43,821 nucleotides of DNA, taken from a virus. This document shows positions 18,095 to 35,485 of the stretch, piece by piece (within the stretch, counting starts at the first letter, position 1; every line of letters starts with the position of its first letter). Below the pieces are notes generated by a model, which did not search any database, was not told the origin of the DNA, and saw only the letters and a program-made list of their open reading frames with translations. The stretch lies in UHGV virus genome UHGV-0374465; one strand, written 5' to 3'. The position numbers and the translations under genes are program-made.

Positions 18095-18123
18095 TTGACA
18101 AGGGTTTCTAAGCATGCTATACT
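18095..18123 (+). promoter_or_regulatory. Early promoter E1 (TTGACA-17-TATACT) with conserved leader cttagttcataagataagaggagg
   Basis: Canonical hexamers. The leader is identical to E2. Confidence 0.65.
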
Positions 18124-18154
18124 TAGTTCATAAGATAAGAGGAGGAATAAAACA

Positions 18155-18439
18155 ATGACAAACACAGTATCAGTTTTAATCAAATCAAGCAAGAAAGAAA
18201 CTCAATATAGATACGGTAAAGAACTTATCAATATTGATCGCAGAACATTACAGCAAATTAAGGGTACAACAAGTCAAGTTTTCGTAGCCAGCGAACCTCA
18301 ACGATTGCTTAAAGACGTTAGTGAGTTCAGAGACGGTCTAACATATTCTCATACAGAAAGTATTAAAATAAACCCTCAATTTATTTGGTACGTTGATGAC
18401 ATGCCAAATATGAGAAATTATGGCAATCTTTTCAAATAA
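18155..18439 (+). CDS. Hypothetical early protein
   Basis: 94 aa, GAGGAGG RBS. Confidence 0.55.
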   Translation: MTNTVSVLIKSSKKETQYRYGKELINIDRRTLQQIKGTTSQVFVASEPQRLLKDVSEFRDGLTYSHTESIKINPQFIWYVDDMPNMRNYGNLFK

Positions 18440-18443
18440 AAAG

Positions 18444-18472
18444 TTGACACAGATCAACAAGCATGCTATACT
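18444..18472 (+). promoter_or_regulatory. Early promoter E2 (TTGACA-17-TATACT). Its 35 nt leader is identical to E1.
   Basis: agcatgctatacttagttcataagataagaggagg repeated verbatim. Confidence 0.65.
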
Positions 18473-18503
18473 TAGTTCATAAGATAAGAGGAGGAAAACA
18501 ACA

Positions 18504-18743
18504 ATGAAAACAATGACACACGAAAAATACAACGAATTACAAAAGAAAATGGACATGCTTTACAACGATTTTATTGACTTAGCAGCAGACGCTGAAGAAA
18601 GTAACGAAGGTTTTAGTAAAGTTTCAGACTGGCTAGACAACGAGATAGAAGCCATTTTAGAATGGGCTGACACAAATGATAGCACAGTTTTAGCTGAATT
18701 AGCCATTGACTACTCAAAACTGAAAGGAATGTTAGCATGTTAG
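18504..18743 (+). CDS. Hypothetical acidic protein
   Basis: 79 aa, GAGGAGG RBS. Confidence 0.5.
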   Translation: MKTMTHEKYNELQKKMDMLYNDFIDLAADAEESNEGFSKVSDWLDNEIEAILEWADTNDSTVLAELAIDYSKLKGMLAC

Positions 18744-19063
18744 CAAAATATTACACTGATATCATGAAAATACAACTTAGAGAGTTCAAGCGACTCTCTA
18801 AGTCTCATGAGAAAGCATTGGAACAATTAATGAGAATGAACGAACCAGATAATATGCAAAATCACACAACGCAACGTTACTGGCAGACACTTAACAAAAT
18901 AGAACAATCTGAAAAAGAAATGCGCAACATAATTGAAGAGCTAAACGAATTAGAAAATCGCTTTCACTGGTTAGATAACTTACATCAAGAACGCTTTCAT
19001 TTTCTCACTAAAGACGCAGAGTTATTACAGAAAATTATCAAGTTGATGAATCTTCAAAGATAG
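18737..19063 (+). CDS. Hypothetical protein
   Basis: 108 aa, overlaps the upstream gene. Confidence 0.5.
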   Translation: MLAKYYTDIMKIQLREFKRLSKSHEKALEQLMRMNEPDNMQNHTTQRYWQTLNKIEQSEKEMRNIIEELNELENRFHWLDNLHQERFHFLTKDAELLQKIIKLMNLQR

Positions 19064-19075
19064 GAGGAAACTATA

Positions 19076-19258
19076 ATGTTAACCAAACCACAAAAAATAT
19101 TATTGTCATTTCTGCACGCACTAACAACTCTTGGAGTAATATTCTTAGCATATAAACTAGGCGTGTACCTATATAGTATCTTTGGCATAATCTCACTTCT
19201 TTACTTAGCTGGCTTCATTATTCTATGGCTTGTTTGGTATCTAATATTCAATAGCTAA
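19076..19258 (+). CDS. Small membrane protein
   Basis: 60 aa, two TM helices, TAGGAGG RBS. Confidence 0.5.
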   Translation: MLTKPQKILLSFLHALTTLGVIFLAYKLGVYLYSIFGIISLLYLAGFIILWLVWYLIFNS

Positions 19259-19268
19259 ATTAGGAGGA

Positions 19269-19472
19269 ATGGAAATGAACAAAGAAGACAAAATATTAAA
19301 GACACTTACTGAATTGTTAATATTCTTTCTAGTATGTTTAGATGTAGGTGCTGTTGTACTAATTATTGACATACTACAATACTCATTAACACTAATGATT
19401 TTAATAGCAGCGCTAGTGATATCATTAAATGTATCACTAATCTCAATGGTAGTTGAAATTAGGAGGAACTAA
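19269..19472 (+). CDS. Small membrane protein
   Basis: 67 aa, hydrophobic, TAGGAGG RBS. Confidence 0.5.
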   Translation: MEMNKEDKILKTLTELLIFFLVCLDVGAVVLIIDILQYSLTLMILIAALVISLNVSLISMVVEIRRN

Positions 19473-19473
19473 A

Positions 19474-19635
19474 ATGAACACATTTATTATTCTAGCAAAA
19501 AGAAACACTCAAACCATTCAATTAAGCTACCTAGCTGAAACGATGAGAGCAGCAATTGATGAATTTCGCTTGACATATCCCAAAAAGCACTATAAAATTA
19601 TTGACTGTAAGGAAGCAACAAATTATAATAGATAG
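19474..19635 (+). CDS. Hypothetical protein (start moved to the RBS-supported ATG)
   Basis: AGGAGG + 7 nt + ATG at 19474 (MNTFIILAK). Confidence 0.45.
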   Translation: MNTFIILAKRNTQTIQLSYLAETMRAAIDEFRLTYPKKHYKIIDCKEATNYNR

Positions 19636-19646
19636 GAGGCAGTACA

Positions 19647-19859
19647 ATGTATATTGTAGAAATTATTAATCCAGAAAAAGCAGAACTATATTATAGTCCA
19701 GAAGTTTTCAGCACTCTAAAAGAAGCAGAAGAATATTTGCAGGAAGCATGTGAAGATACACTTGGTTTAGAAGGTGTAATTGTATCAGTATTACTAGAAA
19801 AGGCTGTTTTCAATAAAAGAATGATTCTTGTGTCAGCAGATATTGTGTATCACACATAG
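19647..19859 (+). CDS. Hypothetical acidic protein
   Basis: 70 aa, TAGGAGG RBS. Confidence 0.5.
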   Translation: MYIVEIINPEKAELYYSPEVFSTLKEAEEYLQEACEDTLGLEGVIVSVLLEKAVFNKRMILVSADIVYHT

Positions 19860-19926
19860 ATAGTAACAATCACACTAACAAATAGTAAGATTAGTAGTGT
19901 GATCATAACAGAGGAGGAAAACAACA

Positions 19927-20268
19927 ATGTTACAATTTAAAGAATGTCAAACATATATTTGCACAAAGTCAAATAAATCCTGGTTTACTCCAGGAGAAGA
20001 ATATCCTGTTGTTTTGGATAGTCGTGGGACAGCACTAATTATAGACAATGATGCAGATAAATGGTCTTCACGCGCATTAGCTGCTTCTAACATTGACTTT
20101 AAACTAAAAGAGACGCAACCAAAAGTAAGGATGAAAGACCTAAAATCAAACAAAGTAGAACCCATGTATACACCATGTGACGTTAATAAAATAATTATCA
20201 AAGCTTATCAAACATATAATAATGACGCACAACGATTGGCATTTATAAAAGGATATTTTGCGAAATAA
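19927..20268 (+). CDS. Hypothetical protein. Paralog of the next gene.
   Basis: Shared motif C-x-KSN-x3-F-x2-GE-x-YP ... KW with 20287..20598. Confidence 0.5.
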   Translation: MLQFKECQTYICTKSNKSWFTPGEEYPVVLDSRGTALIIDNDADKWSSRALAASNIDFKLKETQPKVRMKDLKSNKVEPMYTPCDVNKIIIKAYQTYNNDAQRLAFIKGYFAK

Positions 20269-20286
20269 AAAGGAGGAAAAAAAGAA

Positions 20287-20598
20287 ATGACAATATTAAA
20301 ACGGTACAAATGTATAAAATCAAATGATGAACAAAGATTTGCTGTGGGAGAAATATATCCATTATATAATAACGGTTATAAAAATTACGTTGTAGCGAAT
20401 AATAATGTGAAATGGTATGAAAAAGAATTTCCAATTATTAAACGAGACTATGGTATTGAATTTGAGGAGGTAAAAGAAAAAATATTTGATCTAAACAAAC
20501 TGACAACCACACAGTTGAGAGAATACGTTGATCTACTTGAAAATAAAGAGAAAGCAGAACGCGCACTAAATAAGTTCATTGAAAGGATGACTAAATAA
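20287..20598 (+). CDS. Hypothetical protein. Paralog of the previous gene.
   Basis: KRYKCIKSNDEQRFAVGEIYPL... versus FKECQTYICTKSNKSWFTPGEEYPV... Confidence 0.5.
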   Translation: MTILKRYKCIKSNDEQRFAVGEIYPLYNNGYKNYVVANNNVKWYEKEFPIIKRDYGIEFEEVKEKIFDLNKLTTTQLREYVDLLENKEKAERALNKFIERMTK

Positions 20599-20777
20599 TG
20601 TTTAAAGTATTAGTGACAAAATACAATGCTGGAGAAGGTATAGAAGTAACTGAATTTAATTACATTGATAAGTATTACTTTGAAGATGACTATGTAATTT
20701 TATATGATACTACCAATAAAGTGAAAACCTATATTCAAAAAGACCAAGTATTAGAATTTGAGGTGCATTATGAATAA
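20598..20777 (+). CDS. Hypothetical protein (59 aa)
   Basis: TAATG overlap with the upstream gene. Open frame MFKVLVTKYNAGEG... Confidence 0.35.
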   Translation: MFKVLVTKYNAGEGIEVTEFNYIDKYYFEDDYVILYDTTNKVKTYIQKDQVLEFEVHYE

Positions 20778-20952
20778 AACTAACGAACTAATCACATTAA
20801 CAAGAATTGATGAAACCAAACTATATATAAACATTAATCATATTGTGGCATTCTATCACAACAAAGCTTGGGAATATACTATTGTTATACTGTCAGACGG
20901 TACTCAATTAGATATAAAAGACTCAGTAGAATCAATTGCTAACTATTTTTAA
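20770..20952 (+). CDS. Hypothetical protein
   Basis: GAGGTG RBS. ATG at 20770 preferred over the track's TTG at 20758. Confidence 0.45.
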   Translation: MNKTNELITLTRIDETKLYININHIVAFYHNKAWEYTIVILSDGTQLDIKDSVESIANYF

Positions 20953-20958
20953 TCAAAA

Positions 20959-20990
20959 GTATAGCACAAATGAAAAGTTTGTGCTATACT
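20959..20990 (+). promoter_or_regulatory. Hairpin (10 bp stem) followed by an extended -10 element TGCTATACT and the conserved leader. Terminator/promoter composite E3.
   Basis: gtatagcacaaa-tgaaaag-tttgtgctatact. The stem overlaps the -10. Confidence 0.45.
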
Positions 20991-21023
20991 TAGTACATAT
21001 CAGATGAGGGAGGACAAAAAAGA

Positions 21024-22610
21024 ATGAATGAACTAACAAAAATAGATTATTCAGCACCACTTGAGGAATTACTACCAGTTTCAAATAAAAACTTTCCAAG
21101 TGAGGAGTTTGTGGACTTCAATTCAGAATTAGGAAGGATGTATTACGGAGGTAAAGACGGTACACAAGCCAAATTTGAGATTCAACAGGAATTATTTATT
21201 GATAAATTCAACCAGCTAGCCTATGTGTACGCTCACCCTAACTTAAACGCTCCATATGTATACAACGCAGACACGCGCATCTGGTCTGAGGTAAATCTAG
21301 GTAGTTACAAATATTCAGATTGGTACTTTGAAAATATTCTAGCGCCAAAATTTACACCACAATTCAGAAATCCAGAGTTTGGGAATGAAATTCGTAAAGA
21401 AATGAAGAAACTAGCTCCTGAGTTAGCGAATCGCTCCATGACACGTGGCGAACATGCACCATTAGGTGATAACCCCAACCCAAACATTATTGCGTTTGAA
21501 AACGGCACATACGACTTTAGAACGAATGAAATTCGTGAGACAAGATTAGAAGATTATCATACGTTACAATTGCCATATCCGTTAATTAAAACAGATGAGA
21601 CAGATGAATTACTCGCAAAACAATGGATTGATTATTTACTTAAAGACCAAGCTCAGACATTGTATGAGTATATTGGTTACATGTATTATAGAGAGTACAA
21701 ATATCAATCAATTCTATATTTATTAGGTAATGGATCAAATGGTAAATCATATGTAGGTGGATTTATCATGAACAAATTAATTGGTTTCAAAAATAGCTCA
21801 GCAGTTGGTCTAGACAGCTTAGCAGATAAGAATAATCGTTTTGATAAAGCTTCACTACACCACAAATTATTGAACTTTGAAGCGGATTCAAGTGCCAATT
21901 TTGTGAAGGGTACGGAGACATTGAAAAAGCTTTCAGGAGGTCTTGACGCTGTTCATGCTGAGAAAAAAGGCAAAGACGCTTTTAGCTTCACCAACTATGC
22001 AAAACTAATGTTCTCAATGAATGAACTACCTGCATTTAATGATCGTACAAATGGTTGGTATAGACGTATTTTGATTTTAAATTTCAACACTAATCTTGAC
22101 ACACCAGAGGCACGTCAACGCATTAATGAGTTCAATAAACAACGTGAAGAACGTGAGTCAAAAGAGCAACTTGGTAAATTTGCCTGGTTCTGTATTCAAC
22201 AATTCAAAAAGATTTTAGACACAGGTGCAAATGGTGAAAACCCATTCACAGAAACAGAAGACATGATTGAATTTAAGAAAGCATATATTGAATCCAACGA
22301 CCCATCTAAAGAGTTCTTGAGTGAAGTACCTGTGATTGTGGAAGATGAGGAAGGCAGTGTTAACCTAACCCTATTGAAGAATATCTTTAATGTGTACACA
22401 AAAGAAAACAATATCAATAAGTCAATGAACTGGCGAACGATGAAAGAATTACTACTGAAGCAAGGATTTGAAGAAAAACGTACAAGTAAAGCTCGTATAT
22501 TAACTGGTCTCAAAATTGCACGTAATGGAGACAACGAGTCAATTAAACCATATTTAATGAACGCGTTAGCAGGAACAGAGTATGTAAACATTTTCAATGA
22601 TATACAATAG
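21024..22610 (+). CDS. DNA primase/helicase (P4/D5-type, C-terminal SF3 NTPase)
   Basis: 528 aa. Walker A LLGNGSNGKS. Overall resembles the phage/plasmid primase P4 C-terminal domain and D5-like proteins. Confidence 0.7.
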   Translation: MNELTKIDYSAPLEELLPVSNKNFPSEEFVDFNSELGRMYYGGKDGTQAKFEIQQELFIDKFNQLAYVYAHPNLNAPYVYNADTRIWSEVNLGSYKYSDWYFENILAPKFTPQFRNPEFGNEIRKEMKKLAPELANRSMTRGEHAPLGDNPNPNIIAFENGTYDFRTNEIRETRLEDYHTLQLPYPLIKTDETDELLAKQWIDYLLKDQAQTLYEYIGYMYYREYKYQSILYLLGNGSNGKSYVGGFIMNKLIGFKNSSAVGLDSLADKNNRFDKASLHHKLLNFEADSSANFVKGTETLKKLSGGLDAVHAEKKGKDAFSFTNYAKLMFSMNELPAFNDRTNGWYRRILILNFNTNLDTPEARQRINEFNKQREERESKEQLGKFAWFCIQQFKKILDTGANGENPFTETEDMIEFKKAYIESNDPSKEFLSEVPVIVEDEEGSVNLTLLKNIFNVYTKENNINKSMNWRTMKELLLKQGFEEKRTSKARILTGLKIARNGDNESIKPYLMNALAGTEYVNIFNDIQ

Positions 22611-22621
22611 GAGGAATAATA

Positions 22622-22825
22622 ATGAGTTTAAAATCAGAGATTTTTGATTATATTGATATGCGTTTGGAGTATGTTAATAGAAAAATAGATAGATTTGAAC
22701 AATTTGATAATACGAGATCTAAAAGCTCACTTATAGAACAGGCTATGAATATAGCCATTAAGGATGAGTTGTTAATACTCAAAAACGACTTATACTATAC
22801 AATGCCATGGGAGGAAGAGGAATGA
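22622..22825 (+). CDS. Hypothetical protein
   Basis: 67 aa, TAGGAGG RBS. Confidence 0.45.
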   Translation: MSLKSEIFDYIDMRLEYVNRKIDRFEQFDNTRSKSSLIEQAMNIAIKDELLILKNDLYYTMPWEEEE

Positions 22826-23046
22826 ACAAATATTATGTATACACAGTAAATAGTGATACACCATTTGTGGTCAGAACAAAAGATGATCTACAAGAAGAAT
22901 ATTGGAATACTGTTGTAAAAACAAAAGGTCAAGGTGTATGGCGTTTTGAGTATGAGGGTGAAGAAAAACCAGGCAGAACACCAACCAAGTATGATAGTGT
23001 GTTCAGAGTAGAGCACATTGTATCTATTGTAAAAATAATTGAATAA
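22822..23046 (+). CDS. Hypothetical protein
   Basis: RBS-supported ATG at 22822 (MNKYYVYTV). Confidence 0.45.
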   Translation: MNKYYVYTVNSDTPFVVRTKDDLQEEYWNTVVKTKGQGVWRFEYEGEEKPGRTPTKYDSVFRVEHIVSIVKIIE

Positions 23047-23061
23047 TTTTAAACTTTACCC

Positions 23062-23090
23062 TTGACTTATTGTTGAGGGTATTGTATTAT
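23062..23090 (+). promoter_or_regulatory. Early promoter E8 (TTGACT-17-TATTAT)
   Basis: Canonical spacing upstream of 23117. Confidence 0.5.
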
Positions 23091-23116
23091 ATAAATATAG
23101 AGAGGGAGGAATTGAA

Positions 23117-23311
23117 ATGACATATCAAGAATTAATTGAACACAAGAACACATTGCAGGGTAAAATAAATGAGATAAATAAAACAATAGAGTATTTTAAA
23201 AGCATTGGAGTAAACAACTTTATAGACACATTAGATGATACTCGTGAACGTTTAACTCAGTTAGTAGACATTATTGACACAGAACTATATAAAAAGGAGG
23301 AATTAAAATGA
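23117..23311 (+). CDS. Hypothetical protein
   Basis: 64 aa, GGGAGG RBS. Confidence 0.45.
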   Translation: MTYQELIEHKNTLQGKINEINKTIEYFKSIGVNNFIDTLDDTRERLTQLVDIIDTELYKKEELK

Positions 23312-23400
23312 CATTTATGATGATTGGGTTATTATTTATTGGAGCAGTAATTTACGGAGCTGGAGTACTTATCCACTGGTTAGAGGAGGGAGAATATTAA
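23308..23400 (+). CDS. Hydrophobic micro-protein (30 aa, single TM)
   Basis: AAGGAGG RBS + ATGA overlap. MTFMMIGLLFIGAVIYGAGVLIHWLEEGEY. Confidence 0.3.
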   Translation: MTFMMIGLLFIGAVIYGAGVLIHWLEEGEY

Positions 23401-23401
23401 G

Positions 23402-23617
23402 ATGGATAAATTGAATTACACAAAAGACCTAACAACAGAAACTGACGAGCAAGTGTGTGTTGGAACGTATGATAATGATATTAATATTTACATTAGGTTA
23501 ATAGATGATGAAGAAGATTGTGCCATTGTGACACTAACACTTAAAGAGGCACAACGTGTGAAGCGCTACTTAGAAGACGCTATCACAACGAATATTATTA
23601 ATTGGGAGGAAGAATAA
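23402..23617 (+). CDS. Hypothetical acidic protein
   Basis: 71 aa. Confidence 0.45.
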   Translation: MDKLNYTKDLTTETDEQVCVGTYDNDINIYIRLIDDEEDCAIVTLTLKEAQRVKRYLEDAITTNIINWEEE

Positions 23618-23850
23618 TGTTAACATTAAAAGAATGGGATGATATTGCGTCAGAATTAGAACCGCAAGTAATGTCAAATTACGGCGAGAAGGAGCAAACA
23701 TATCTATGGGCACTATATGGTGGGCTATTGCAACACATGAAAGATTCAGGCATGACAATTGATGAAGTATTATTAATTTGTGAAGAGAAAGCAACAGGTA
23801 AAAAGAGAGAGGATTGCGTGAGAAGTCATGAAAGAAAATCAGTTCAGTAA
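23617..23850 (+). CDS. Hypothetical protein
   Basis: TAATG coupling. GGGAGG RBS. Start at 23617 (MLTLKEW). Confidence 0.45.
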   Translation: MLTLKEWDDIASELEPQVMSNYGEKEQTYLWALYGGLLQHMKDSGMTIDEVLLICEEKATGKKREDCVRSHERKSVQ

Positions 23851-26028: not shown

Positions 26029-26048
26029 AAATAAATGTGCCAAACTAG

Positions 26049-26077
26049 TTGACACCCCTTAAATGGGGTGTTATACT
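26049..26077 (+). promoter_or_regulatory. Early promoter E4 (TTGACA-17-TATACT) with a 7 bp hairpin ACACCCC-ttaaat-GGGGTGT in the spacer
   Basis: Canonical hexamers. The hairpin sits 20 nt after the helicase stop, so it may double as a terminator. Confidence 0.6.
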
Positions 26078-26105
26078 TAGTACATAGATAAAAGGAGGAA
26101 GTAAG

Positions 26106-26849
26106 ATGAAACAACTAAGACTAAAGAAAAATGGTAAAGCACCACTAGTTGCTGGAGCGTTTGATGGAGAATCAGAAGATTTGATTCAAAAATGGATTAA
26201 AGAGGGAGGTAATATCGGAATTCTTACTGGAACAAAAAGTGGAATCATAGTGGTTGACTTAGACCGTCATGGTGATTCAGATGGGGTTGACTCATTAAAG
26301 AATCTACTTGAAGCATATGATATTGAGTTACCAATAACTAAAGTAGTTAAGACACCCAATAACGGATATCATTATTATTTTAAGTTGCCTTCAAAATATT
26401 ATGATATTCAACTGAAACAGAATGTAAATGGTTATGAAGGTATTGATTTTCAGAGTAGCGGTCGTTTCGTTGTAGTACCACCCAGTCAAATTGATGGTAG
26501 ACCATATGAGGTAATTCGTGACGTTGCTGAGTTACCAGAGTTACCAGAGAAGTTACTTGAGATTTTAGTGGATAAAACGATTACTAAGAAAAACAAGAAG
26601 CGAGAAAGAAAATGGACGGCAACCCTATTAGGTGATATAATTGCAGGTAGTGGTGAAGGCGGAAGAAATATCTGGCTAACCACTCAAATTGGTAAATTAT
26701 TTGCTACAGGACTGAACCATGATGAGGTGCGTGTATGGTCTCTATACGTTAATCAGATTGGCTGCAATCCACCATTATCAGAGGATGAAGTACTGCAAAC
26801 ATATGAGAGCGTTCGTAAGCGCGAAATAAGAAGAATGGAGAATAACTGA
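26106..26849 (+). CDS. Bifunctional primase-polymerase (PrimPol N-terminal domain + PriCT-like C-terminus)
   Basis: VVDLDRH (DxD), GYHYYF, VVVPPS motifs. Confidence 0.7.
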   Translation: MKQLRLKKNGKAPLVAGAFDGESEDLIQKWIKEGGNIGILTGTKSGIIVVDLDRHGDSDGVDSLKNLLEAYDIELPITKVVKTPNNGYHYYFKLPSKYYDIQLKQNVNGYEGIDFQSSGRFVVVPPSQIDGRPYEVIRDVAELPELPEKLLEILVDKTITKKNKKRERKWTATLLGDIIAGSGEGGRNIWLTTQIGKLFATGLNHDEVRVWSLYVNQIGCNPPLSEDEVLQTYESVRKREIRRMENN

Positions 26850-27589: not shown

Positions 27590-27799
27590 ATGAATTATGA
27601 TGAATTAATCACTAAACTAGATCAACTGCTACCACCAAAGAATCAGAAGCTTAAGGTGTCTGACAAATATTTCTACTATTGTTATGGTTATTTAACCTCG
27701 TTGGATAGTTTTAATATTATTTCAAAAGAGGATTACGTAAACGCCCACAGGTACGTAACTATGAGTATGAATGATAATAAATATAAGGAGGAAGAATAA
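27590..27799 (+). CDS. Hypothetical protein
   Basis: 69 aa, coupled to the MTase stop. Confidence 0.45.
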   Translation: MNYDELITKLDQLLPPKNQKLKVSDKYFYYCYGYLTSLDSFNIISKEDYVNAHRYVTMSMNDNKYKEEE

Positions 27800-27999
27800 T
27801 GGATAAGCGATTATTTAACACAGAGTTTAAAAATGGATATTGTGTGACAGTATTCAGTCAATCAAGATTTGAGTTACAATACTATGTAGAAGTTTTCCAT
27901 GTTAATGAGCCGCAAGATAATCATAGAGTTGAGTTTCATACCGCGCGCGAGGTTTTTGGATATTTATCAGATATTCAAAATTATAAACAAAAAGACTAG
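27799..27999 (+). CDS. Hypothetical protein
   Basis: 66 aa, GGAGG RBS. Confidence 0.45.
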   Translation: MDKRLFNTEFKNGYCVTVFSQSRFELQYYVEVFHVNEPQDNHRVEFHTAREVFGYLSDIQNYKQKD

Positions 28000-28020: not shown

Positions 28021-28065
28021 GAGGAGGGAGGAGGAATCCCTATAATTAATTATAGCATAAAATAA

Positions 28066-28094
28066 AAGTTTTGTGTTGACATTGAAACAATATT
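28066..28094 (+). promoter_or_regulatory. Early promoter E9 (TTGACA-17-TAAGAT)
   Basis: Canonical spacing upstream of 28137. Confidence 0.5.
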
Positions 28095-28136
28095 ATGTTA
28101 AGATTGAGATAGTTAAACGAGAAAGGATTTGATAAA

Positions 28137-28448
28137 ATGTTTAATGAATCTGAAGAACTACAGAATACACTTGATAAAATAATACAGGGTTCACGTATTA
28201 CAGGCAGTGTATTTGAACCTGAAGAATTAAAAAATACAAAACGCTACAAAACCAGCTCAGGTAAACAACTCTTTGACGTGCTAGAAGATGATTTACTAAC
28301 TTATGAAGAATTACGTGGTTTCTACAAAGCGAACATTTACAAATATACACACAGATATAAACAAAAAAACGGCATTGAAGATTTGAAAAAAGTAAAGGTC
28401 TATGTAGATCAACTAATAAAACTGGAGGAAAAACAAGATGAGATTTGA
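28137..28448 (+). CDS. DUF3310-like phage protein
   Basis: YKANIYKYTHRYKQKNGIEDLKKVKVYVDQLI resembles the DUF3310 signature GNiiKY..R..KkG..DLeKa..Yl..Li. Confidence 0.5.
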   Translation: MFNESEELQNTLDKIIQGSRITGSVFEPEELKNTKRYKTSSGKQLFDVLEDDLLTYEELRGFYKANIYKYTHRYKQKNGIEDLKKVKVYVDQLIKLEEKQDEI

Positions 28449-28908: not shown

Positions 28909-29644
28909 TATTCACTATACAGGAAGTAAAGGAAACTGTGCTTCTATCTATTATGATAACTTAGGATTCTTAATTGATATAGGGAAGCCATATAAATACA
29001 TTGAACCTTATTTATTTAACAAGCAATTCATTATAATCACACATAAGCACCAAGATCACCTTGTATATACAACATATAAAAAGATTAGAGAAAATTTTCC
29101 ACATATTCAAATATTGGGTAATCAGGAAGTACAAGATAACTTAAAGAAACGTAACTTACCACTGTTAGACCTTATATTCAAAGATGACTTCCAATTCCAA
29201 ATTGGTGAAGTTAAGTTCACCACAATTCAGAATTATCATGGAGCTGGAGAAGAGTATACAGAAACACATGGTTTCATTATGGAGACACATAACCAAAATA
29301 CTTTGTTTGCCACTGATTTAAGTACAATGACAGACTATGAAAAGTATCTTTTGGAAAACGACTTAACGATTGATAACCTATTACTTGAAGCTAACTATGA
29401 CCCTAAAGTTATTGAATTTTACGAATCTACAAAACAGCACACTGGGTATGATGTGTTTAGTAATGGTAGTTACCGTCACTTAAGTACAACAGAACGAGAG
29501 TTATTTGTTGACAAATTTGGTAAAGATGATATGATTAATGTAGAACTACACCAGTCAGAAACATATCGTACTTTTGATGGGTTAATTAGACGATCAAAAG
29601 GAAAAATTACAAAAAAAGATGTTGACAACTGGCTGGTAAGATGA
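28883..29644 (+). CDS. Metallo-beta-lactamase-fold hydrolase
   Basis: IITHKHQDHL (HxHxDH motif). Confidence 0.65.
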   Translation: MITETMSFDIHYTGSKGNCASIYYDNLGFLIDIGKPYKYIEPYLFNKQFIIITHKHQDHLVYTTYKKIRENFPHIQILGNQEVQDNLKKRNLPLLDLIFKDDFQFQIGEVKFTTIQNYHGAGEEYTETHGFIMETHNQNTLFATDLSTMTDYEKYLLENDLTIDNLLLEANYDPKVIEFYESTKQHTGYDVFSNGSYRHLSTTERELFVDKFGKDDMINVELHQSETYRTFDGLIRRSKGKITKKDVDNWLVR

Positions 29645-29679
29645 TAAGATTAAAACATAAAGACAGAGGAGGAAGCAAA

Positions 29680-29853
29680 ATGAAATTAGAGATAACATGG
29701 AGAGAATCACAGGAAGTATTATCAGCAATAAATGCCTGGGTATCAAAATATGGGTCTGACAATATGTCAGAGGAAATGAAAGAACTTACAGAAAAATGTC
29801 TTGCATTTGACAAGCAAATCTTAGATAACTTTGGAGTGGAGGAAGAAAAATGA
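29680..29853 (+). CDS. Hypothetical protein (57 aa)
   Basis: GAGGAGG RBS + ATG at 29680. Confidence 0.4.
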   Translation: MKLEITWRESQEVLSAINAWVSKYGSDNMSEEMKELTEKCLAFDKQILDNFGVEEEK

Positions 29854-30077
29854 CTTATCAATATGGAGATCTAGTAAAATTTACAAACAACTATGGAATG
29901 CACGCAGCACAAGGCGACGAAGGAACTGTACAACACGTAGACAAGTTTGGAAACATTCTTGTCTTAGTTGAAACAGGAGACTTCGCAGCACGCTTTGAGG
30001 AAGTACGTGACGAAGATATTGAACTGATTGATCGCTTGAGTGATGAAGATTTGGATTTGTTGAAGGAGGAACTGTGA
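29850..30077 (+). CDS. Hypothetical acidic protein
   Basis: 75 aa, ATGA coupling. Confidence 0.45.
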   Translation: MTYQYGDLVKFTNNYGMHAAQGDEGTVQHVDKFGNILVLVETGDFAARFEEVRDEDIELIDRLSDEDLDLLKEEL

Positions 30078-30079
30078 GA

Positions 30080-30247
30080 ATGAACTATAAAACACTTTTG
30101 AAATTAGATTACTCATATACTGAAAACCAGTTGTTTGATTTAATTGAGAAGTATAAGTGGTTATTAAAAATAAATTATACGATTGATGAAATTTTTGCAG
30201 TAGAGTATAAACGCCTTCAAATGGAGGATGAAAAACATGGCCTTTGA
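30080..30247 (+). CDS. Hypothetical protein (55 aa)
   Basis: GGAGG RBS. Overlaps the next gene. Confidence 0.3.
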   Translation: MNYKTLLKLDYSYTENQLFDLIEKYKWLLKINYTIDEIFAVEYKRLQMEDEKHGL

Positions 30248-31043
30248 GTTATCAATTCAATCTACAGGTAAACATGAAATACAATTCATTGGCTACGAAA
30301 AAACACTTGATGATGTTAGGAGATTAGCTGAACGTATGAAAGAGCAAGAAGTGAACGAGGAAAACATTATTGAAAACAAAAAACTTCTTGCTGAAATTCG
30401 TAAGGAAATTAAAAAATTAGACTCAGAACGTCTAGCTGTTAAGCGTGAAATTATGACACCCTATGACGAACTCAATGAGAAAATAAAAGTATTGAAAGAA
30501 GTACTGGGTGAAGGTGAGGGTCATATAAATGCTCAAATTAAAGAGATTACCGCTCGTGAGCAGGAACAACGTAAGTTACAAATCAAGGACTTATTTAAGA
30601 AGTATCAAAAGTCATATAACGCTCCACAATGGCTTACTTTTGATAAGTTCATTGCCAAAAACCCAACACTAATTACTAATAAGTCAACTAGTGCTAAGAA
30701 GATACGTGAAGCGGTGGTTTCTTATTTTGAAGCATTTAAACAAGACTATTCTAAGTTAAAAGAGACTTATCCTGACAAAGATGATCGTTCTGCCATTCTG
30801 ATTGCCTACTCTAAAAACGGTCATAATATGCAAGAAGCTATCATTGACTATGCTAATATGATTGCTGAGAAAGAACGTCTTGAAAAAGAACAGGCTAGAG
30901 TGAAAGAAACCAGAGTGCCTGACATTGTCATACTCACTGGAAACGAGCAAAAACAGGAGGCTCCTAAACCAGTTGAATATGTAACAATTAAAGTTAAGAA
31001 AGAAGATTTGAGGAAACTTAAAATTGAGTATGAGGTACTATAA
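30237..31043 (+). CDS. Coiled-coil protein, possibly DUF1351-type
   Basis: 268 aa, Lys/Glu-rich heptad regions. RBS-supported ATG at 30237. Confidence 0.5.
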   Translation: MAFELSIQSTGKHEIQFIGYEKTLDDVRRLAERMKEQEVNEENIIENKKLLAEIRKEIKKLDSERLAVKREIMTPYDELNEKIKVLKEVLGEGEGHINAQIKEITAREQEQRKLQIKDLFKKYQKSYNAPQWLTFDKFIAKNPTLITNKSTSAKKIREAVVSYFEAFKQDYSKLKETYPDKDDRSAILIAYSKNGHNMQEAIIDYANMIAEKERLEKEQARVKETRVPDIVILTGNEQKQEAPKPVEYVTIKVKKEDLRKLKIEYEVL

Positions 31044-31124
31044 TAAGCTACACAAGTAAGGGAATATGTGCTATAATAGATTTTGTAAGAGAGAAAATAA
31101 AACAAATTAATTGGAGGAATTAAG

Positions 31125-31817
31125 ATGTCAGAATTGAAAAAAGTAATTATCGTTAGCGCAGAGGAAGATGATATTAGCGTGAAATTACAGGTAGCCAGTG
31201 AAGATTATAGCGCTATCTATGAAGCTGCAGTATTTAAACAAACATATGATAAAGACTCTAAAACATGGAACGACTTCACAGATGAAGATACAAAAGGCAA
31301 AGAACGACTTGAAAAAGCATTAGAACTTTTAGGTGGCTCTTTTTACAACTTGGAAGATAAAGAGTTAGAAATGTATGTAGACGAAGAAACAGGCAAAGCA
31401 TATTTTGAAGAAGGAACATCATTCAAAAAGATTGAGAAACCACTGGTTTCACTAAAACGGTTGAAGCAAGTTCCCATTGTAGAAATCAAAGATAGTGCTA
31501 AAGGGCGTGCGGTAGTTGTAGAGCATGATGGTAAATACTACTCATTTAATTTCAATTCAGGAGTATATATCGATAAATTGAACAAATTTATTCCTAATCA
31601 AGCGAAACTTGCCAAAGCCAAAGCACGCTTCAATGAGTTGTTTGAAGATGTAAATGTAACATGGGATACTGCAGAAATGGCGATTGGAATGGTTGTGGAT
31701 TGCACTGTTAATAAAAATATGCTGGATCCAAAATCCCCATATGGATGGTTGGAGGCACAACCACTTGATCCTGATGACCAGAAAGAGGTTGTAACAGAAG
31801 AGGAGTTACCATTCTAA
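31125..31817 (+). CDS. Hypothetical acidic protein (possible recombination/SSAP-associated; unassigned)
   Basis: 230 aa. Position next to the DUF1351-like gene in the replication/recombination block. Confidence 0.5.
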   Translation: MSELKKVIIVSAEEDDISVKLQVASEDYSAIYEAAVFKQTYDKDSKTWNDFTDEDTKGKERLEKALELLGGSFYNLEDKELEMYVDEETGKAYFEEGTSFKKIEKPLVSLKRLKQVPIVEIKDSAKGRAVVVEHDGKYYSFNFNSGVYIDKLNKFIPNQAKLAKAKARFNELFEDVNVTWDTAEMAIGMVVDCTVNKNMLDPKSPYGWLEAQPLDPDDQKEVVTEEELPF

Positions 31818-31847
31818 AATAAATGTAAAAGAGGTTAGCCAAAACGG

Positions 31848-31876
31848 TTGACTTCTTTTTTTATCCATGCTATACT
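31848..31876 (+). promoter_or_regulatory. Early promoter E5 (TTGACT-17-TATACT) with conserved leader. A T-run-containing imperfect hairpin lies upstream.
   Basis: gaggttagccaaaacggttgacttcttttttt, then ccatgcTATACTtaattcataa. Confidence 0.55.
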
Positions 31877-31906
31877 TAATTCATAATTTAATAGGAGGTA
31901 ATTAAA

Positions 31907-32236
31907 ATGAATAACAATACAATTATCATTCACGTACCATCAGAAGATTTAAAGGAGGGTAATCTTTGGGATAAAATTTACGACATGTTTGCACAAGAAT
32001 TAATAAGATTAAATATGGAACATGCAGCAGAGTTTAATGCAAGAGTAGGTTTTACAAACGATCCAATCCGCAAAGCAACTAACCGTATGATGATAACTAG
32101 ACTAGTTAAGTCTATGAGTGGTTATAAGGTTGAGATAAAGCATGAAGACGTTGAAACGGGTATAACTACTCTTGCTGTATCAATCCATACAACGACTGAT
32201 CCTTTAACACACTACCAATGGGGTGATGGAGAATGA
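31907..32236 (+). CDS. Hypothetical protein
   Basis: 109 aa, TAGGAGG RBS. Confidence 0.45.
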   Translation: MNNNTIIIHVPSEDLKEGNLWDKIYDMFAQELIRLNMEHAAEFNARVGFTNDPIRKATNRMMITRLVKSMSGYKVEIKHEDVETGITTLAVSIHTTTDPLTHYQWGDGE

Positions 32237-32442
32237 AGATTGGAAACGTGGTTGAATTAAAAAGAGATAATCTAAACGGAATTGGCATTAAAGGTGAGAA
32301 AGGTGTGGTACTGTACAAGCTTTACGAACCAGTTGACGGATGTGAACTAATGGTTAAGTTATACAGTGGTTCAACAGAAGCCTTCATAGAACAAGATTTA
32401 AAATTATCAGTTAAAAACATTGACAAAGTTAACTTCACATAG
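32233..32442 (+). CDS. Hypothetical protein
   Basis: 69 aa, ATGA coupling. Confidence 0.45.
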   Translation: MKIGNVVELKRDNLNGIGIKGEKGVVLYKLYEPVDGCELMVKLYSGSTEAFIEQDLKLSVKNIDKVNFT

Positions 32443-32448
32443 TAAACT
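32420..32448 (+). promoter_or_regulatory. Early promoter E6 (TTGACA-17-TAAACT) embedded in the 3' end of the preceding gene
   Basis: Canonical spacing. Followed by the leader cttaattcataagataaagagagg. Confidence 0.5.
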
Positions 32449-32479
32449 TAATTCATAAGATAAAGAGAGGAAGATTAAA

Positions 32480-32812
32480 ATGACTAAACAAAATCCAGTA
32501 TTAGAAACATTGAAGAAAATGAACACACCACAACAGGAGGAAAAAGAAATGACTAACGAAGAATTACAACATGAAATATATAAAGAACAGTTACGCCAAT
32601 TAAAAGAATTGAAGGAAGATAGTAAAAAACCAAGTTTGACTGTTTATTTATTGCTAGCACTCTTCTTAGGAGGAATTGGTGCCCATGATTTCTATGTTGG
32701 AAAACCAGTGCAAGGACTCATTAAACTAGCATTCTGTTGGACAGGTATTCCTACAATTGTTTCACTATTCAATATTATTGGTGCGTTGATGAACAAACAA
32801 AACTTTAAATAA
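32480..32812 (+). CDS. TM2 domain-containing membrane protein
   Basis: LFLGGIGAHDFYVGKPVQGLIKL matches the TM2 signature G..G.H.FY.G....G..kL. Confidence 0.6.
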   Translation: MTKQNPVLETLKKMNTPQQEEKEMTNEELQHEIYKEQLRQLKELKEDSKKPSLTVYLLLALFLGGIGAHDFYVGKPVQGLIKLAFCWTGIPTIVSLFNIIGALMNKQNFK

Positions 32813-32828
32813 TAGGAGGAAGATTAAA

Positions 32829-33035
32829 ATGATGTTAGTAGACAACTTAATTTTAACAGTGAAAGATGAAGATGGTGTAATTATCAACAGACATTTTAAT
32901 GAGGTGTATATAAAGATTGATCCAACTCAAATGATGATTGCAAACAAGAAGAAAACGATTGCCGTTTATAAGTTAGATGATATCTTGTATATGCAAACAC
33001 AAGGACATCCACGTCATTTCAAATGTTTCAGATGA
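32829..33035 (+). CDS. Hypothetical protein
   Basis: 68 aa, TAGGAGG RBS. Confidence 0.4.
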   Translation: MMLVDNLILTVKDEDGVIINRHFNEVYIKIDPTQMMIANKKKTIAVYKLDDILYMQTQGHPRHFKCFR

Positions 33036-33075
33036 GACACACAATAGAAAGCTTCATAGAATTTCTACTTTGTAC

Positions 33076-33104
33076 TTGTGTATTAGCAATTGACGTGATA
33101 TACT
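33076..33104 (+). promoter_or_regulatory. Early promoter E10 (TTGTGT-17-TGaTATACT, extended -10)
   Basis: Upstream of the polymerase gene. Confidence 0.4.
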
Positions 33105-33137
33105 ATATTATATTCAAACGAGAGAGGAAGTAACTAG

Positions 33138-35417
33138 ATGAAAAACATTGCAGAATTTAAAGGTGCTGAAAAACTGGCATCTAAACTGTTAGAAATATTC
33201 GCAGCACTTGCTGGAAATGGGAAAAGTTTTGATCCAATAGTAGAAGGAGTTCACCAAGTTGTAGTGATTAAAGCAGAGGAACGTTTATCTGCTAAAGGTA
33301 AAGAAATGAAAGAAATTAAAGTACGCAGCACAAATGATGGACGTGACGCTACTTTTTATATTATGAAGTTTCGTAAAAAAGACTGGAAAACTTGGGAAAA
33401 TATTGAAGTAGGTCAACAACTGATGATTACTCTGAAATACAATAATGGTTTTCCAAATGTAGCCATTAATCAAAAAGGAGCAGTTATTGATAATTTACCT
33501 GAGAAACCACACGGGGCACTAACACATCAAACAATCTATATTTATGATATTGAAGTATTTAAAAAAGATAATTTATTTGTTTTCAGAGATTACTTCACTA
33601 AAGAATGGACAGTTATTCATAATGATTTAGACGCGTTACGTAAGTTCTATCTTGCGAATAGAGATTCATTGTTTGTTGGTTATAATTCACACTCATATGA
33701 TTCCAATGTCATGCGTGCCTATTTACAAGGTAAAAACCCATTTCATGTGTCAAAAGCGATCATTGAAAGTGATGACAGAGCGTTAGCATATAAAATGTTT
33801 GATACTAAGAAAACACCACTGTTTGGAATGGATTTATATCAAGACAATAGAGGTTTTAGTTTGAAAGAACATAGCGCTTTCATGGGTATTAATATTAAAG
33901 AAACTGAGGTAGACTTTGATTTAGATAGAGAACTAACAGAAGAAGAACAAGTCTTGAATGAGTTGTACTGTAAAAATGATGTGTTAGCTACGGAAAAACG
34001 TTTTGAACAAAATATAGGCATGTTAGTAGCTAAGGCTGCAATTGCACTATATTTTGATTTAGATAAAATGGCACTGTCAATGACTAACGCAAATTTAACA
34101 GCTGAACTATTGGGGGCTGAAAAGACACCTGATAGAGGTGATGAGTTAGATAAGTATGAACTACCAGAAGGATTTAAAATTGAATCAGAGACCATCCGTC
34201 AGGCGTTTATGACAGATGAATTTGAAGCTAATGATAAAGGACATGCTAGTATTTCATTAGATGTACCACGTAGAGACGTAACAGAGGTTTTAGGGGTAGG
34301 TGGGATACACGGTGCTAAGGAGTCATTTATTCATGTAGGTAACTTCCATGCACGTGACGTAGGTTCTCTATATCCAAACACAATGGTATTGTTTGACTAC
34401 TTATCAAGAAACATTCCAGAAGATAAACGGCATATCTATCAAATGTTATTAGATGAACGCATGGAAGCCAAGTATTCTAATAAAGAATTTACTGAAATTA
34501 AAGGCGTTCAAATTCCAACAAAGTTGCTAATTAATGGTTATAAACTACCTTTAAACACGAAATATGGTGCAATGGGAGCTGAGTTTAATAAACTATATGA
34601 TCCACGCATGAGATTATTAGTGTGTATCACTGGACAGATGGCAATGTGGGACTTACTAGAAAAGATTGAAGACCATGCTACTATTATTCAATCAAACACA
34701 GACGCACACTACTATATTCCATTCAGTGAAGAAGATGAAAAAGCTATTGATGAGATTGCAAATGATTGGATGAAACGAACAGGATACACCTTAGATGATG
34801 ATCCATTTAAAGCTATTTTCCAGAAGGACGTTAATAATTATTTAGCTGTTACATCAGACGGTAAAGTGAAGTTTAAGGGTGCCATAGGACTAACTAATGG
34901 TTTGAAAGTATCTAAAGCAATTGTGTCAAATGCTTTTATTAACTACGTGGTTGCTGGTAAAGATTATAAAGATTTTATCAATGAATGTGACGAACTACGT
35001 CAATTCCAAATGATTACTAAAACTGGCTGGACATTTGATGATACTATTGTACGTGATAGTGAAGGTAATGAAATGAAAGCACAAAAAGTAAACCGCACAT
35101 TTGCAATAAAAGACCCTAATAAAGCTGTTGAAATATTCAAGGTGAAACGTGGAGCTGTAATTGAAGAGGAAGGCACAACTATTGTTGGTGATGATTCTTA
35201 TACTAAAGGTTTACCTAATGCACCTGAGTATTATGCCATTGACAATGACGCAATTGGTGAAGGATGGATAACTATTGATGATATTGATAAAGAATACTAT
35301 ATAAACCAGGTGGAAGATTTACTTGTAATGTGGTTTGGTACAAATTGGAAAGAGCGTATTGAGCAGGCGCATAGCCAGATAGATGAATTTCCAGAAGTTA
35401 AAAATTATATTGACTAA
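33138..35417 (+). CDS. Family B DNA polymerase with a 3'-5' exonuclease domain
   Basis: Exo I YDIEV, Exo II YNSHSYDSNVM, Exo III YCKNDV. Pol motif A DVGSLYPNTM, motif B KLPLNTKYG, and a QSNTDAHY motif-C-like segment. Confidence 0.8.
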   Translation: MKNIAEFKGAEKLASKLLEIFAALAGNGKSFDPIVEGVHQVVVIKAEERLSAKGKEMKEIKVRSTNDGRDATFYIMKFRKKDWKTWENIEVGQQLMITLKYNNGFPNVAINQKGAVIDNLPEKPHGALTHQTIYIYDIEVFKKDNLFVFRDYFTKEWTVIHNDLDALRKFYLANRDSLFVGYNSHSYDSNVMRAYLQGKNPFHVSKAIIESDDRALAYKMFDTKKTPLFGMDLYQDNRGFSLKEHSAFMGINIKETEVDFDLDRELTEEEQVLNELYCKNDVLATEKRFEQNIGMLVAKAAIALYFDLDKMALSMTNANLTAELLGAEKTPDRGDELDKYELPEGFKIESETIRQAFMTDEFEANDKGHASISLDVPRRDVTEVLGVGGIHGAKESFIHVGNFHARDVGSLYPNTMVLFDYLSRNIPEDKRHIYQMLLDERMEAKYSNKEFTEIKGVQIPTKLLINGYKLPLNTKYGAMGAEFNKLYDPRMRLLVCITGQMAMWDLLEKIEDHATIIQSNTDAHYYIPFSEEDEKAIDEIANDWMKRTGYTLDDDPFKAIFQKDVNNYLAVTSDGKVKFKGAIGLTNGLKVSKAIVSNAFINYVVAGKDYKDFINECDELRQFQMITKTGWTFDDTIVRDSEGNEMKAQKVNRTFAIKDPNKAVEIFKVKRGAVIEEEGTTIVGDDSYTKGLPNAPEYYAIDNDAIGEGWITIDDIDKEYYINQVEDLLVMWFGTNWKERIEQAHSQIDEFPEVKNYID

Positions 35418-35421
35418 ACAC

Positions 35422-35450
35422 TTGACACCTCTTAACTGAGGTGTTATACT
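35422..35450 (+). promoter_or_regulatory. Early promoter E7 (TTGACA-17-TATACT) with a 7 bp hairpin ACACCTC-ttaact-GAGGTGT in the spacer
   Basis: Same architecture as E4. 5 nt after the polymerase stop. Confidence 0.6.
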
Positions 35451-35485
35451 TAATTCATAAAGTAATAGGAGGAAAATAAAATAAT

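Follow-up and report, generated by a model that had tools for sequence, protein, structure and literature searches.

We report that the early/replication arm of the viral genome UHGV-0374465, analysed here as one stretch of 43,821 nt (the window), carries about 12 consensus sigma-A promoters on its + strand. The window derives from a virulent Enterococcus faecium siphophage, and the promoters, labelled E0 to E8 or by position below, are joined to the ribosome-binding site of the next gene in compact cassettes. Some cassettes also embed a stem-loop that would belong to the upstream transcript, and we think it likely that together they split the arm (17.7-37.2 kb) into about ten short transcription units. 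This arrangement matches that of the promoter-early stem-loops (PeSLs) already known from T4-like phages, and is in that respect a largely ordinary finding. Promoter activity, initiation at the A of a conserved CATAA, termination or attenuation at the stem-loops and early timing are all predictions made from the nucleotide sequence.

The motif TAWACTTARTWCATA, with at most one mismatch, has nine matches in the window against 0.23 expected, and none of 100 shuffles reached nine; eight of the nine lie on the + strand, between 17765 and 35459. The looser pattern TTGACW-16..18-TANAHT occurs 12 times on the + strand, 11 of them in the early arm, and once on the - strand. Ten sites combine TTGAC(A/T), a spacer of exactly 17 nt and TA..(C/A)T, several of them scoring 11/12, and the promoter sites stand 55-65 nt 5' of a Shine-Dalgarno sequence (SD) and start codon on the same strand. 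All the promoter sites listed in an earlier note on this DNA exist in the sequence, and its proposal of an early sigma-A family gains in silico support from the hexamers, the 17-nt spacer, the TGn-extended -10, the orientation, the restriction to the early strand and the presence of the family in about 25 relatives.

Conservation extends well beyond the hexamers. When sites were chosen by the two hexamers alone, in the window and about 25 relatives (172 non-redundant contexts), the resulting logo had additional conservation at ATG (-17 to -15), TA (-6/-5), CATAA (-1 to +4) and the SD, with positions +5 to +10 weakly conserved. The ATG at -17 to -15, which supplies the TGn of an extended -10, is present in 67-81% of the hexamer-selected family sites, and each of the ten canonical window members has an A exactly 7 nt past its -10, with UA(A/G) next; this A of CATAA is the predicted +1. 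The cassette consensus reads TTGACA-17-TGnTATACT-TAGTTCATAAGATAAGAGGAGG, with TAGTTCATAA as discriminator and start region and TATACTTAGTTCAT across -12 to +2, and continues into an A-rich leader of 20-25 nt, a strong SD and a start codon. Relatives hold 4-7 high-scoring cassette copies each, compared with about 12 in the window.

In the transcription start site map of E. faecium, tgnTAtaaT was found at 98% of promoters and a canonical -35 at only about 4%, those of the most highly expressed genes (PMC7724050). Because a canonical -35 is confined to this small and highly expressed fraction of host promoters, the phage cassettes fall into the strongest class, and indeed they combine all that marks the strongest promoters of the host type. 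The choice of +1 nucleotide links promoters in Firmicutes to the ATP or GTP pool, and an A kept at +1 would spare phage transcription the effects of GTP depletion.

Could the similarity among the cassettes reflect mere ancestry from recent duplications, or an A/T-rich composition, with no function at all? The identity between E1 and E2 does look like a recent duplication or insertion, as it flanks a dispensable ORF (open reading frame) and runs for 38 nt (18110-18147 = 18459-18496), longer than the 35 nt first noted. Yet composition alone gives 0.23 matches against the nine observed, and among about 25 relatives the motif persists in 159 distinct contexts, as it does in unrelated phage families. 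Nor is there any within-genome homogenisation, and in the -10 of relatives T1, A2 and T6 are kept while positions 3-5 drift. An absence of function is thus already largely refuted, and we consider it very improbable.

A second alternative concerns the segment that follows the -10. The earlier note had proposed this conserved leader as a binding site for an early regulator, and one may imagine a DNA- or RNA-binding early protein, or one modifying RNA polymerase, that switches off the whole promoter class at the early-to-late transition. Conservation does reach past the hexamers, the motif is confined to the early strand, and there is a precedent in phage T5, whose gp026 alters RNA polymerase binding to the -12/+2 but not to the -12/-6 segment of promoter N25 (PMC7472727). 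The conserved positions, however, coincide exactly with -6/-5, -1 to +4 and the SD, in other words with core promoter, start site and ribosome-binding site, and conservation is poor from +5 to +10; a candidate regulator did not emerge; and the motif recurs in Enterococcus phages of unrelated sipho-, podo- and myophage groups and in temperate phages of Streptococcus. Its presence in unrelated phages with different gene sets makes a regulator private to this phage unlikely, and a dedicated regulator of any kind seems to us a rather remote prospect.

The breadth of this distribution favours a core promoter. For the 48-nt segment that starts with the extended -10 and ends with the ATG, 148 phage records give matches of 80-96% identity, 140 of them from Enterococcus. 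These include the small genomes of EFRM31 and Ef6.2, EFP01 with its 155 kb, and E. faecalis siphophages that have almost no other DNA in common with the window. At least 120 stretches of IMG/VR contain the exact pattern TTGACW-N17-TAWACTTARTWCATAA, and among 101 newly fetched loci 67 can be aligned to the window over less than 5%. The groups that could be identified comprise two of Streptococcus temperate phages, one with the promoter beside Cro/CI genes, and the Enterococcus podophage Ef6.3. Among Streptococcus prophages the motif is found in switch promoters. The same pattern was sought in 185,579 species-representative bacterial genomes (596 Gb), where it has 86 matches, none of them in Enterococcus, and 14 of 80 are followed by an SD and start codon; the viral collection being redundant, a fold-enrichment of phages over bacteria is only approximate. 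With so few bacterial matches, and none in Enterococcus, a general feature of host promoters was rejected as an explanation. The segment behaves instead like a core promoter with start region that is typical of the phages of Lactobacillales.

Five cassettes, namely E3, E4, E6, E7 and an element 5' of the primase gene, contain a significant hairpin (z -3.7 to -4.6), compared with z values of +1.1 to -1.5 for E1, E2, E8 and the member at 29622. As a search for inverted repeats at short distance returned mostly A/T palindromes, the arm was instead scanned with RNAfold in sliding windows of 40 nt. Seven of the 13 most stable folds are intergenic (six scored as such, plus a palindrome at 27992-28015 that straddles a stop codon), although intergenic DNA makes up 7% of the arm, and five of the seven overlap family promoters. 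The stems are placed in different ways with respect to the promoter: the -35 lies inside them in E6 and E3, they fill the spacer in E4 and E7, and the primase stem includes the -10. The stem of E4 and E7 has 7 bp, or 9 bp when U-A and G.U are counted, and three of its seven pairs are already given by the promoter itself (ACA in the -35, TGT in the extended -10), leaving four inner pairs, which are G+C-rich. The primase hairpin, a 15-bp perfect duplex of -19.7 kcal/mol, is the most stable local fold of the arm. Terminator-promoter composites, as the earlier note called them, are thus supported, and on a broader base than it had, since significant hairpins, the E6 terminator and compensatory and G.U changes can be added to its case; its 7-bp hairpins filling the E4 and E7 spacers are present as described, and it had overlooked the E6 terminator (31827-31859), the 15-bp hairpin with extended -10 (20957-20991) and the 29622 member. 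A further hairpin, of the E1/E2 class (CAG-TTGACA-CTGGTTT, with the -35 in the loop), was considered and rejected, its pairing being lost across upstream flanks (z +1.1 and -0.6). Searches for known RNA families and transfer RNAs gave none in the window or in four loci of a second hairpin-promoter group described below.

Pairing is maintained in relatives. In the E6-type stem, 24 distinct sequences give 97.1% paired cells over 13 pairs, against 30-68% in controls with a slid partner; four pairs show compensatory changes, and three are mostly U.G, G.U or A-U/G.U. These wobble pairs would be mismatches on the other strand, which points to the sense-strand RNA as the molecule that folds. In the E4/E7-type stem, 17 distinct sequences are 98.7% paired with two compensated pairs, one of them UA:9/CG:8 and the other CG:16/AU:1, along with a single G.U variant, and the loops vary freely (TTAACT, TTAATT, TTAAAT, TCAATT, GTAACT, AATTAA, AATTAT). 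Half-compensated E4/E7 intermediates were absent from an IMG/VR scan able to find them. At the position of E3, relatives have an unrelated E6-type terminator stem of another sequence. Hairpins are absent from those promoters that lie inside the 3' end of a coding region, which are E8, 29622 and the primase-polymerase promoter of the vB_Efm8_KEN21 (KEN21) type, situated in the helicase gene. This ties the hairpin to gene ends rather than to promoter function, as would be predicted of a terminator, attenuator or 3'-end element of the upstream gene.

The same stems might alternatively act as double-stranded DNA, the E4 and E7 palindromes (ACACCYC-N6-GRGGTGT) being operators through which a dimeric phage or host regulator switches both promoters, and with them the primase-polymerase and post-polymerase operons. 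Both are perfect DNA palindromes in which the half-sites are conserved and the centre varies. There is also a parallel in Streptococcus switch promoters with the same core motif: in the prophage-like loci L109, L116, L120, L150, L158 and L181 a 15-bp operator-like palindrome, ATGATTTTAAATCAT, occupies the spacer and is repeated just downstream, by Cro/CI genes. L120, tested on behalf of this group, matches Cro/CI-region DNA of Streptococcus phage Javan246, and there the palindrome is likely a true operator in the spacer, unlike the hairpins of the window. The E4/E7 palindrome, for its part, has just two copies in the window, 9 kb apart and with no second operator nearby. The copies differ symmetrically (CCCC/GGGG and CCTC/GAGG), a third variant is CCCA/TGGG, and one protein would have to accept all of them, while one E4/E7-type variant (TTGACG) pairs as G.U only. 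Other cassettes carry unrelated hairpins at the same relative position, with wobble pairs valid only in sense RNA, and an operator would leave unexplained why hairpins are missing where the promoter lies inside a coding region. Moreover, both stem variants are found at both loci in the relative L065, the window having CCCC/GGGG at E4 and CCTC/GAGG at E7, which argues against a single sequence-specific dimeric protein. An operator of the Cro/CI type was rejected, as half-sites differ within one genome and no second site is adjacent, and we judge operators in general to be an improbable explanation of these stems.

A more serious competitor, if still one we consider unlikely, is that the hairpins are elements of RNA processing or stability, cleaved by RNase III or RNase Y or blocking 3' exonucleases, and not terminators. 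Long read-through transcripts would then be cut into stable units, as in the early mRNAs of T7 and SP82, and RNase III processing of phage early mRNAs is well established. The E4, E7 and primase hairpins lack a good U-tract, and the perfect 15-bp primase duplex, at -19.7 kcal/mol, would suit such a role. E6 and E3, however, have canonical U-rich tails that fit the definition of an intrinsic terminator, stems of 7-10 bp are short for RNase III, and a full promoter after each hairpin would make processing needless for the next gene. At E4 and E7 only 4/8 nt after the stem are U, and the primase hairpin has its U-tract on the antisense side, with none on the sense strand. For these three hairpins, attenuation, 3'-end protection or stabilisation, or processing is as likely as full termination. 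There is, in addition, a slim chance that termination and reinitiation are coupled, RNA polymerase released at the hairpin being passed to the overlapping promoter, and that TA..CATAA is a phage core element for a polymerase-binding factor, comparable with T5 gp026.

Two further observations concern hairpins of this kind. The loop of the primase hairpin (20972-20976) occurs in both orientations among the relatives L001, L089, L103 and L104 (AAATGAAAAGTTT and AAACTTTTCATTT), and the E4-type spacer of L074 has an inverted loop (TTAATT and AATTAA). Inverted loops are the signature of small hairpin-mediated inversions, which would mean that the palindromes are active at the DNA level over evolutionary time. 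Separately, a group of unrelated metagenomic viral contigs (L008, L015, L025, L029, L031, L033, L043, L047, L059, L062 and L063) shares a TTGACAC-N12-GTGTTATACTTA promoter with a covarying spacer hairpin, represented by ACACCCT..AGGGTGT, by ACACTTC..GGAGTGT with U.G, and by ACACTCCC-GCAA-GGGAGTGT. At several of these loci a short hairpin and T-tract come next, which suggests a very short transcript; Rfam gave no match for the four loci of the group that were searched.

One cassette class heads many genes, and one gene may have different classes among relatives. The E7 cassette, for instance, precedes at least six different genes in relatives, being followed by the methyltransferase, by glutaredoxin, by an ORF of unknown function or by one of several HNH-endonuclease-like ORFs, and the primase-polymerase gene comes with a cassette that has a hairpin or with one that has none. 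An E6-type terminator-promoter precedes the orthologue of the gene at 18155 in IME-EFm1. A first k-mer search for cassette-flanked insertions and deletions (indels) found nothing, its thresholds being too strict, and a BLAST-based version succeeded, revealing four independent small-ORF indels in which two flanking cassettes correspond to a single cassette elsewhere. In the 'empty' genomes, the single cassette has on its 5' side the flank of the first cassette and on its 3' side the gene that follows the second. In the window this is the case of E1-[18155..18439]-E2, with a dispensable ORF, when compared with Aramis, IME-EFm5 and L097. The E. faecalis-phage-like contig L115 has, after its primase gene, three cassettes about 263 nt apart (8232-8800), two of which head tandem paralogous ORFs of 62 aa; these may be related to the window gene 18504..18743, judging by N-terminal resemblance alone. 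ORFs beginning M(E/K)E(I/V)WKDI.GYEG lie directly 3' of E6-, E4- and E7-type cassettes in L001, L002 and many IMG/VR relatives, at positions equivalent to 31907, 26106 and 35486 of the window, and the gene at the equivalent of position 31907 is annotated as an HNH endonuclease in KEN21 and Aramis. Free-standing endonuclease genes thus seem to insert right behind cassettes and to borrow their promoter.

Several results weigh against the division of the arm by composite cassettes as we propose it. The tails of the E4, E7 and primase hairpins (UAUACUUA, AGUACAUA) do not form a canonical U-tract, which makes efficient intrinsic termination at these three doubtful, and the covariation of the E4/E7 stem goes back to few independent events. 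In the literature searched, neither this phage nor its relatives had mapped transcript ends, 5' or 3'. Enrichment of recombination breakpoints at cassettes is not demonstrable, since relatives have breakpoints at almost every gene boundary. Concerted evolution or gene conversion among the copies was considered as a general process and rejected: paralogue identity is 0.682 within genomes and 0.682 between them, and 230 of 500 permutations reach the observed difference. The cassettes, then, have demonstrably been used as crossover sites, but a preference for them cannot be claimed.

Along the arm, the leftmost early promoter is E0 (17742..17803, +), at the edge of the divergent intergenic region. 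Its -35 is TTGACA (17742-17747) and its -10 TAAACT (17765-17770), the predicted +1 is A 17777, and an AAGGAGG SD precedes the TTG start at 17801. E1 (18095..18157, +) has its -35 at 18095-18100, TGc-TATACT at 18118-18123 and a predicted +1 at A 18130, followed by an SD and the ATG at 18155; E2 (18444..18506, +) repeats this plan with its -35 at 18444-18449, -10 at 18467-18472, predicted +1 at 18479 and ATG at 18504. Neither has a significant hairpin (z +1.1 and -0.6, respectively). The primase-type element (20957..21026, +) is without a -35: the 3' arm of its 15-bp hairpin (20957-20991) is itself the TRTG-extended -10 (TGTGCTATACT, with the -10 at 20985-20990), and TAGTACATA comes next, before the primase ATG at 21024.

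E3 (23057..23119, +) contains a 10-bp hairpin at 23057-23081 with two wobble pairs and a 5-nt loop. This hairpin had been described as overlapping the -10, whereas it overlaps the -35 (TTGACT, 23062-23067, in the 5' arm), fills the spacer and ends 3 nt before the -10 (TATTAT, 23085-23090); it has a U-rich tail, and the ATG is at 23117. E4 (26049..26108, +) lies 5' of the primase-polymerase gene, with its -35 at 26049-26054, -10 at 26072-26077 and ATG at 26106, and its spacer hairpin ACACCCC-TTAAAT-GGGGTGT (26052-26071) can be extended to 26050-26073. The E5 promoter (28076..28139, +), which had been placed at 28066, really has its -35 TTGACA at 28076-28081 and a TG-extended -10, TAAGAT, at 28099-28104, with the ATG at 28137; it is without the TA..CATAA motif. 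Upstream of E5 there is a separate perfect palindrome, AAGACTAGTCAATTGACTAGTCTT (27992-28015, z -4.5), spanning the stop codon (27997-27999) of gene 27799..27999. Its T-tract lies on the - strand side only, so that it would terminate antisense and not sense transcripts.

The member at 29622 (29622..29682, +) begins with a -35 (29622-29627) inside the 3' end of the MBL-hydrolase gene, whose stop is at 29642-29644, and continues with the -10 TAAGAT (29645-29650), a predicted +1 at A 29657, the SD GAGGAGG and the ATG at 29680; it has no hairpin, and relatives read TATACT-TAGTTCATAAGATAA at this site. The longest ORF here, 29641-29853, begins 5' of the -10, and the ATG at 29680 after GAGGAGG is likely the true start, giving a product of 57 aa; gene callers that take the longest ORF would misplace this start at 29641. 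In E6 (31827..31909, +) an intrinsic terminator, AAAAGAGGUUAGCC-AAAAC-GGUUGACUUCUUUU (about 31827-31859), with a 13-14-bp stem, 5-nt loop, seven U and an upstream A-tract, is merged with a promoter, the -35 TTGACT (31848-31853) lying in its 3' arm and its U-tract forming the promoter spacer, before the -10 at 31871-31876 and the ATG at 31907. E8 (32420..32482, +) overlaps the end of gene 32233..32442, the stop TAG being the last 3 nt of the spacer, and has the -10 TAAACT (32443-32448), a predicted +1 at 32455, the ATG at 32480 and no hairpin; in relatives its -10 varies only at positions 3-5. The rule that each element lies just after the stop of the upstream gene does not hold at 32420 and 29622: there the upstream gene extends over the -35 and the spacer, and its stop codon supplies the final 3 nt of that spacer.

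The extended -10 at 33096 (TGATATACT; 33096..33140, +), 5' of the DNA polymerase gene, is the weakest candidate, with a weak -35 (TTGTGT) and no TA..CATAA, and its membership of the family is not clear. E7 (35422..35488, +) lies 5 nt after the DNA polymerase stop, with its -35 at 35422-35427, the spacer hairpin ACACCTC-TTAACT-GAGGTGT at 35425-35444, the -10 at 35445-35450, a predicted +1 at 35457 and the ATG of the D12 methyltransferase at 35486.

The early arm of the phage is about 89% identical over about 70-75% to KEN21, Aramis, IME-EFm1 and IME-EFm5, all virulent E. faecium siphophages, and 81/81 records matching the window are Enterococcus phages. The + strand genes (17801-37152) comprise small ORFs and replication functions, Pfam identifying a D5-type primase, an SNF2/DEAD helicase, a Prim-Pol, an MBL hydrolase, a D12 methyltransferase, a glutaredoxin and a deoxynucleoside kinase; the DNA polymerase gene was named via the annotation of relatives. 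Structural and lysis genes are on the - strand, GC skew flips at the borders of the early (+) and late (-) arms, and the genome has 33% G+C. Nine of the 12 window copies of TTTGTCAY cluster, in both orientations, at 17397-17725 in the 480-nt divergent region between late and early genes, which also has a perfect 12+12 palindrome (17570-17593) and a hairpin (17694-17716). The cluster resembles iterons or regulator sites and may mark an origin or switch region. The late and lysis genes (- strand, 1958-17320 and 37230-43712) are essentially without a strong sigma-A consensus promoter, with a single weak match at 8324, and late transcription would probably depend on another signal or on a factor from the phage. 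A canonical terminator, AAAACCACUGG-AUUAA-CCAGUGGUUUU (about 37200-37226, -17.2 kcal/mol), stands at the convergent junction between the end of the early arm (37152) and the - strand endolysin gene, and is likely bidirectional. Two strong hairpins are intragenic, one of 12 bp at 18775-18803 (-15.7 kcal/mol) in gene 18737..19063, terminator-like on the - strand, and one of 14 bp at 36359-36390 (-15.2 kcal/mol) in the glutaredoxin gene.

How might such cassettes work? Each would offer the host sigma-A holoenzyme a near-consensus promoter, TTGACA-17 nt-TGn-TATACT, followed by a discriminator and start region in optimised form, with TA at -6/-5, C at -1 and AUAA at +1 to +4, and then by leader, SD and start codon. 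RNA polymerase has few base-specific contacts with the spacer and the hexamer flanks, and the phage appears to use this room for a stem-loop by which the upstream transcript is terminated, attenuated or given a stable 3' end. The overlap would insulate successive units and reset expression while spending no extra intergenic DNA. Being a repeated segment of 50-60 nt, the cassette would double as a homologous recombination site, through which small ORFs and homing-endonuclease genes would be gained, lost, duplicated and swapped together with their own expression signals.

A very similar organisation has been documented in the PeSLs of the T4-type myoviruses RB49/phi1, PST and nt-1, which flank ORFans and mediate indels, and for which promoter and terminator activities were shown experimentally (Arbiol et al. 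2010, PMC2839356; Comeau et al. 2014, PMC4122927) and mini-circles demonstrated (PMC2839356). In both systems the unit runs from an upstream stop in A/T-rich DNA through a strong sigma-70-type promoter, with a stem-loop inside it or overlapping it, to an SD and ATG. The PeSL stem-loop usually lies between the -35 and -10 or overlaps one of the boxes, and contains G-T pairs (PMC2839356), a layout also found in E3, E4, E6, E7 and the primase element. Both systems have many copies per genome on the early strand, flanking small ORFs of unknown function, and in both, two cassettes delimit the segments that are inserted, deleted, replaced or duplicated, while the 'empty' genome has one chimeric cassette. 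There is nonetheless no sequence homology, so the cassettes are analogues and not homologues of PeSLs, whose own setting is the hyperplastic regions of T4-type myoviruses. The host is Gram-positive, the sigma factor thus being the sigma-A of Enterococcus, and the genome is that of a siphovirus, with 43 kb as against the 170-250 kb of the myoviruses. Only about five of the 12 cassettes have a significant hairpin, and their stems are A/U-rich or of mixed sequence, in contrast to the polyG/polyC stems of PeSLs. Promoter and terminator activity and mini-circles have been demonstrated for PeSLs, whereas the present elements are known from their sequence; and recombination specificity is not demonstrable here, nearly every gene boundary being mosaic.

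Other known systems resemble the cassettes in part. The non-template strand of the T5 promoter N25 reads TATAATAGATTCAT from -12 to +2 (PMC7472727), with the -10 at -12 to -7, TTC at -3 to -1 and A(+1)T(+2), so that TATAAT-AGATTC-AT in T5 can be set beside TATACT-TAGTTC-ATAA here, and in both cases the conserved stretch goes on past the hexamers, through discriminator and start region. The early promoters of T7 (A1) and SPO1 may be comparable. Host and sigma factor are not the same, a hairpin is missing from N25, and the resemblance is short and may reflect convergent optimisation. E6 and E3 have the stem, loop and U-rich tail of ordinary intrinsic terminators; E6 differs from these in sharing nucleotides with a promoter, its -35 being in the stem and its U-tract serving as spacer, and the E4, E7 and primase hairpins differ in having no U-tract. 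Lambdoid morons and mycobacteriophage SAS/stoperators are likewise short, repeated, gene-attached expression signals that accompany mosaic gene gain and loss. SAS and stoperators, however, are translation- or repressor-associated sites and not complete promoters, and no repressor is implied for the cassettes. Morons, for their part, are not thought to move via their regulatory sequences (PMC2839356).

The papers on related phages report only generic promoter and terminator predictions, and a limited literature search, whose outcome is not proof of absence, gave no description or mapping of these promoters for Enterococcus phages. The cassettes offer a concrete and testable transcription map for phages that are therapeutic candidates and for which only generic predictions have been published so far. 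Their pattern should be useful for annotating early genes in Lactobacillales phages, and the cassette itself could serve as a ready-made strong expression signal for engineering in Enterococcus and Streptococcus. Hairpins that share nucleotides with a -35, spacer or -10 would be natural substrates for the study of interference between termination and initiation. In this siphophage of a Gram-positive host, the cassettes would extend the PeSL concept, of elements that act both as gene insulators and as recombination linkers, beyond the T4-like myoviruses of Gram-negative hosts.

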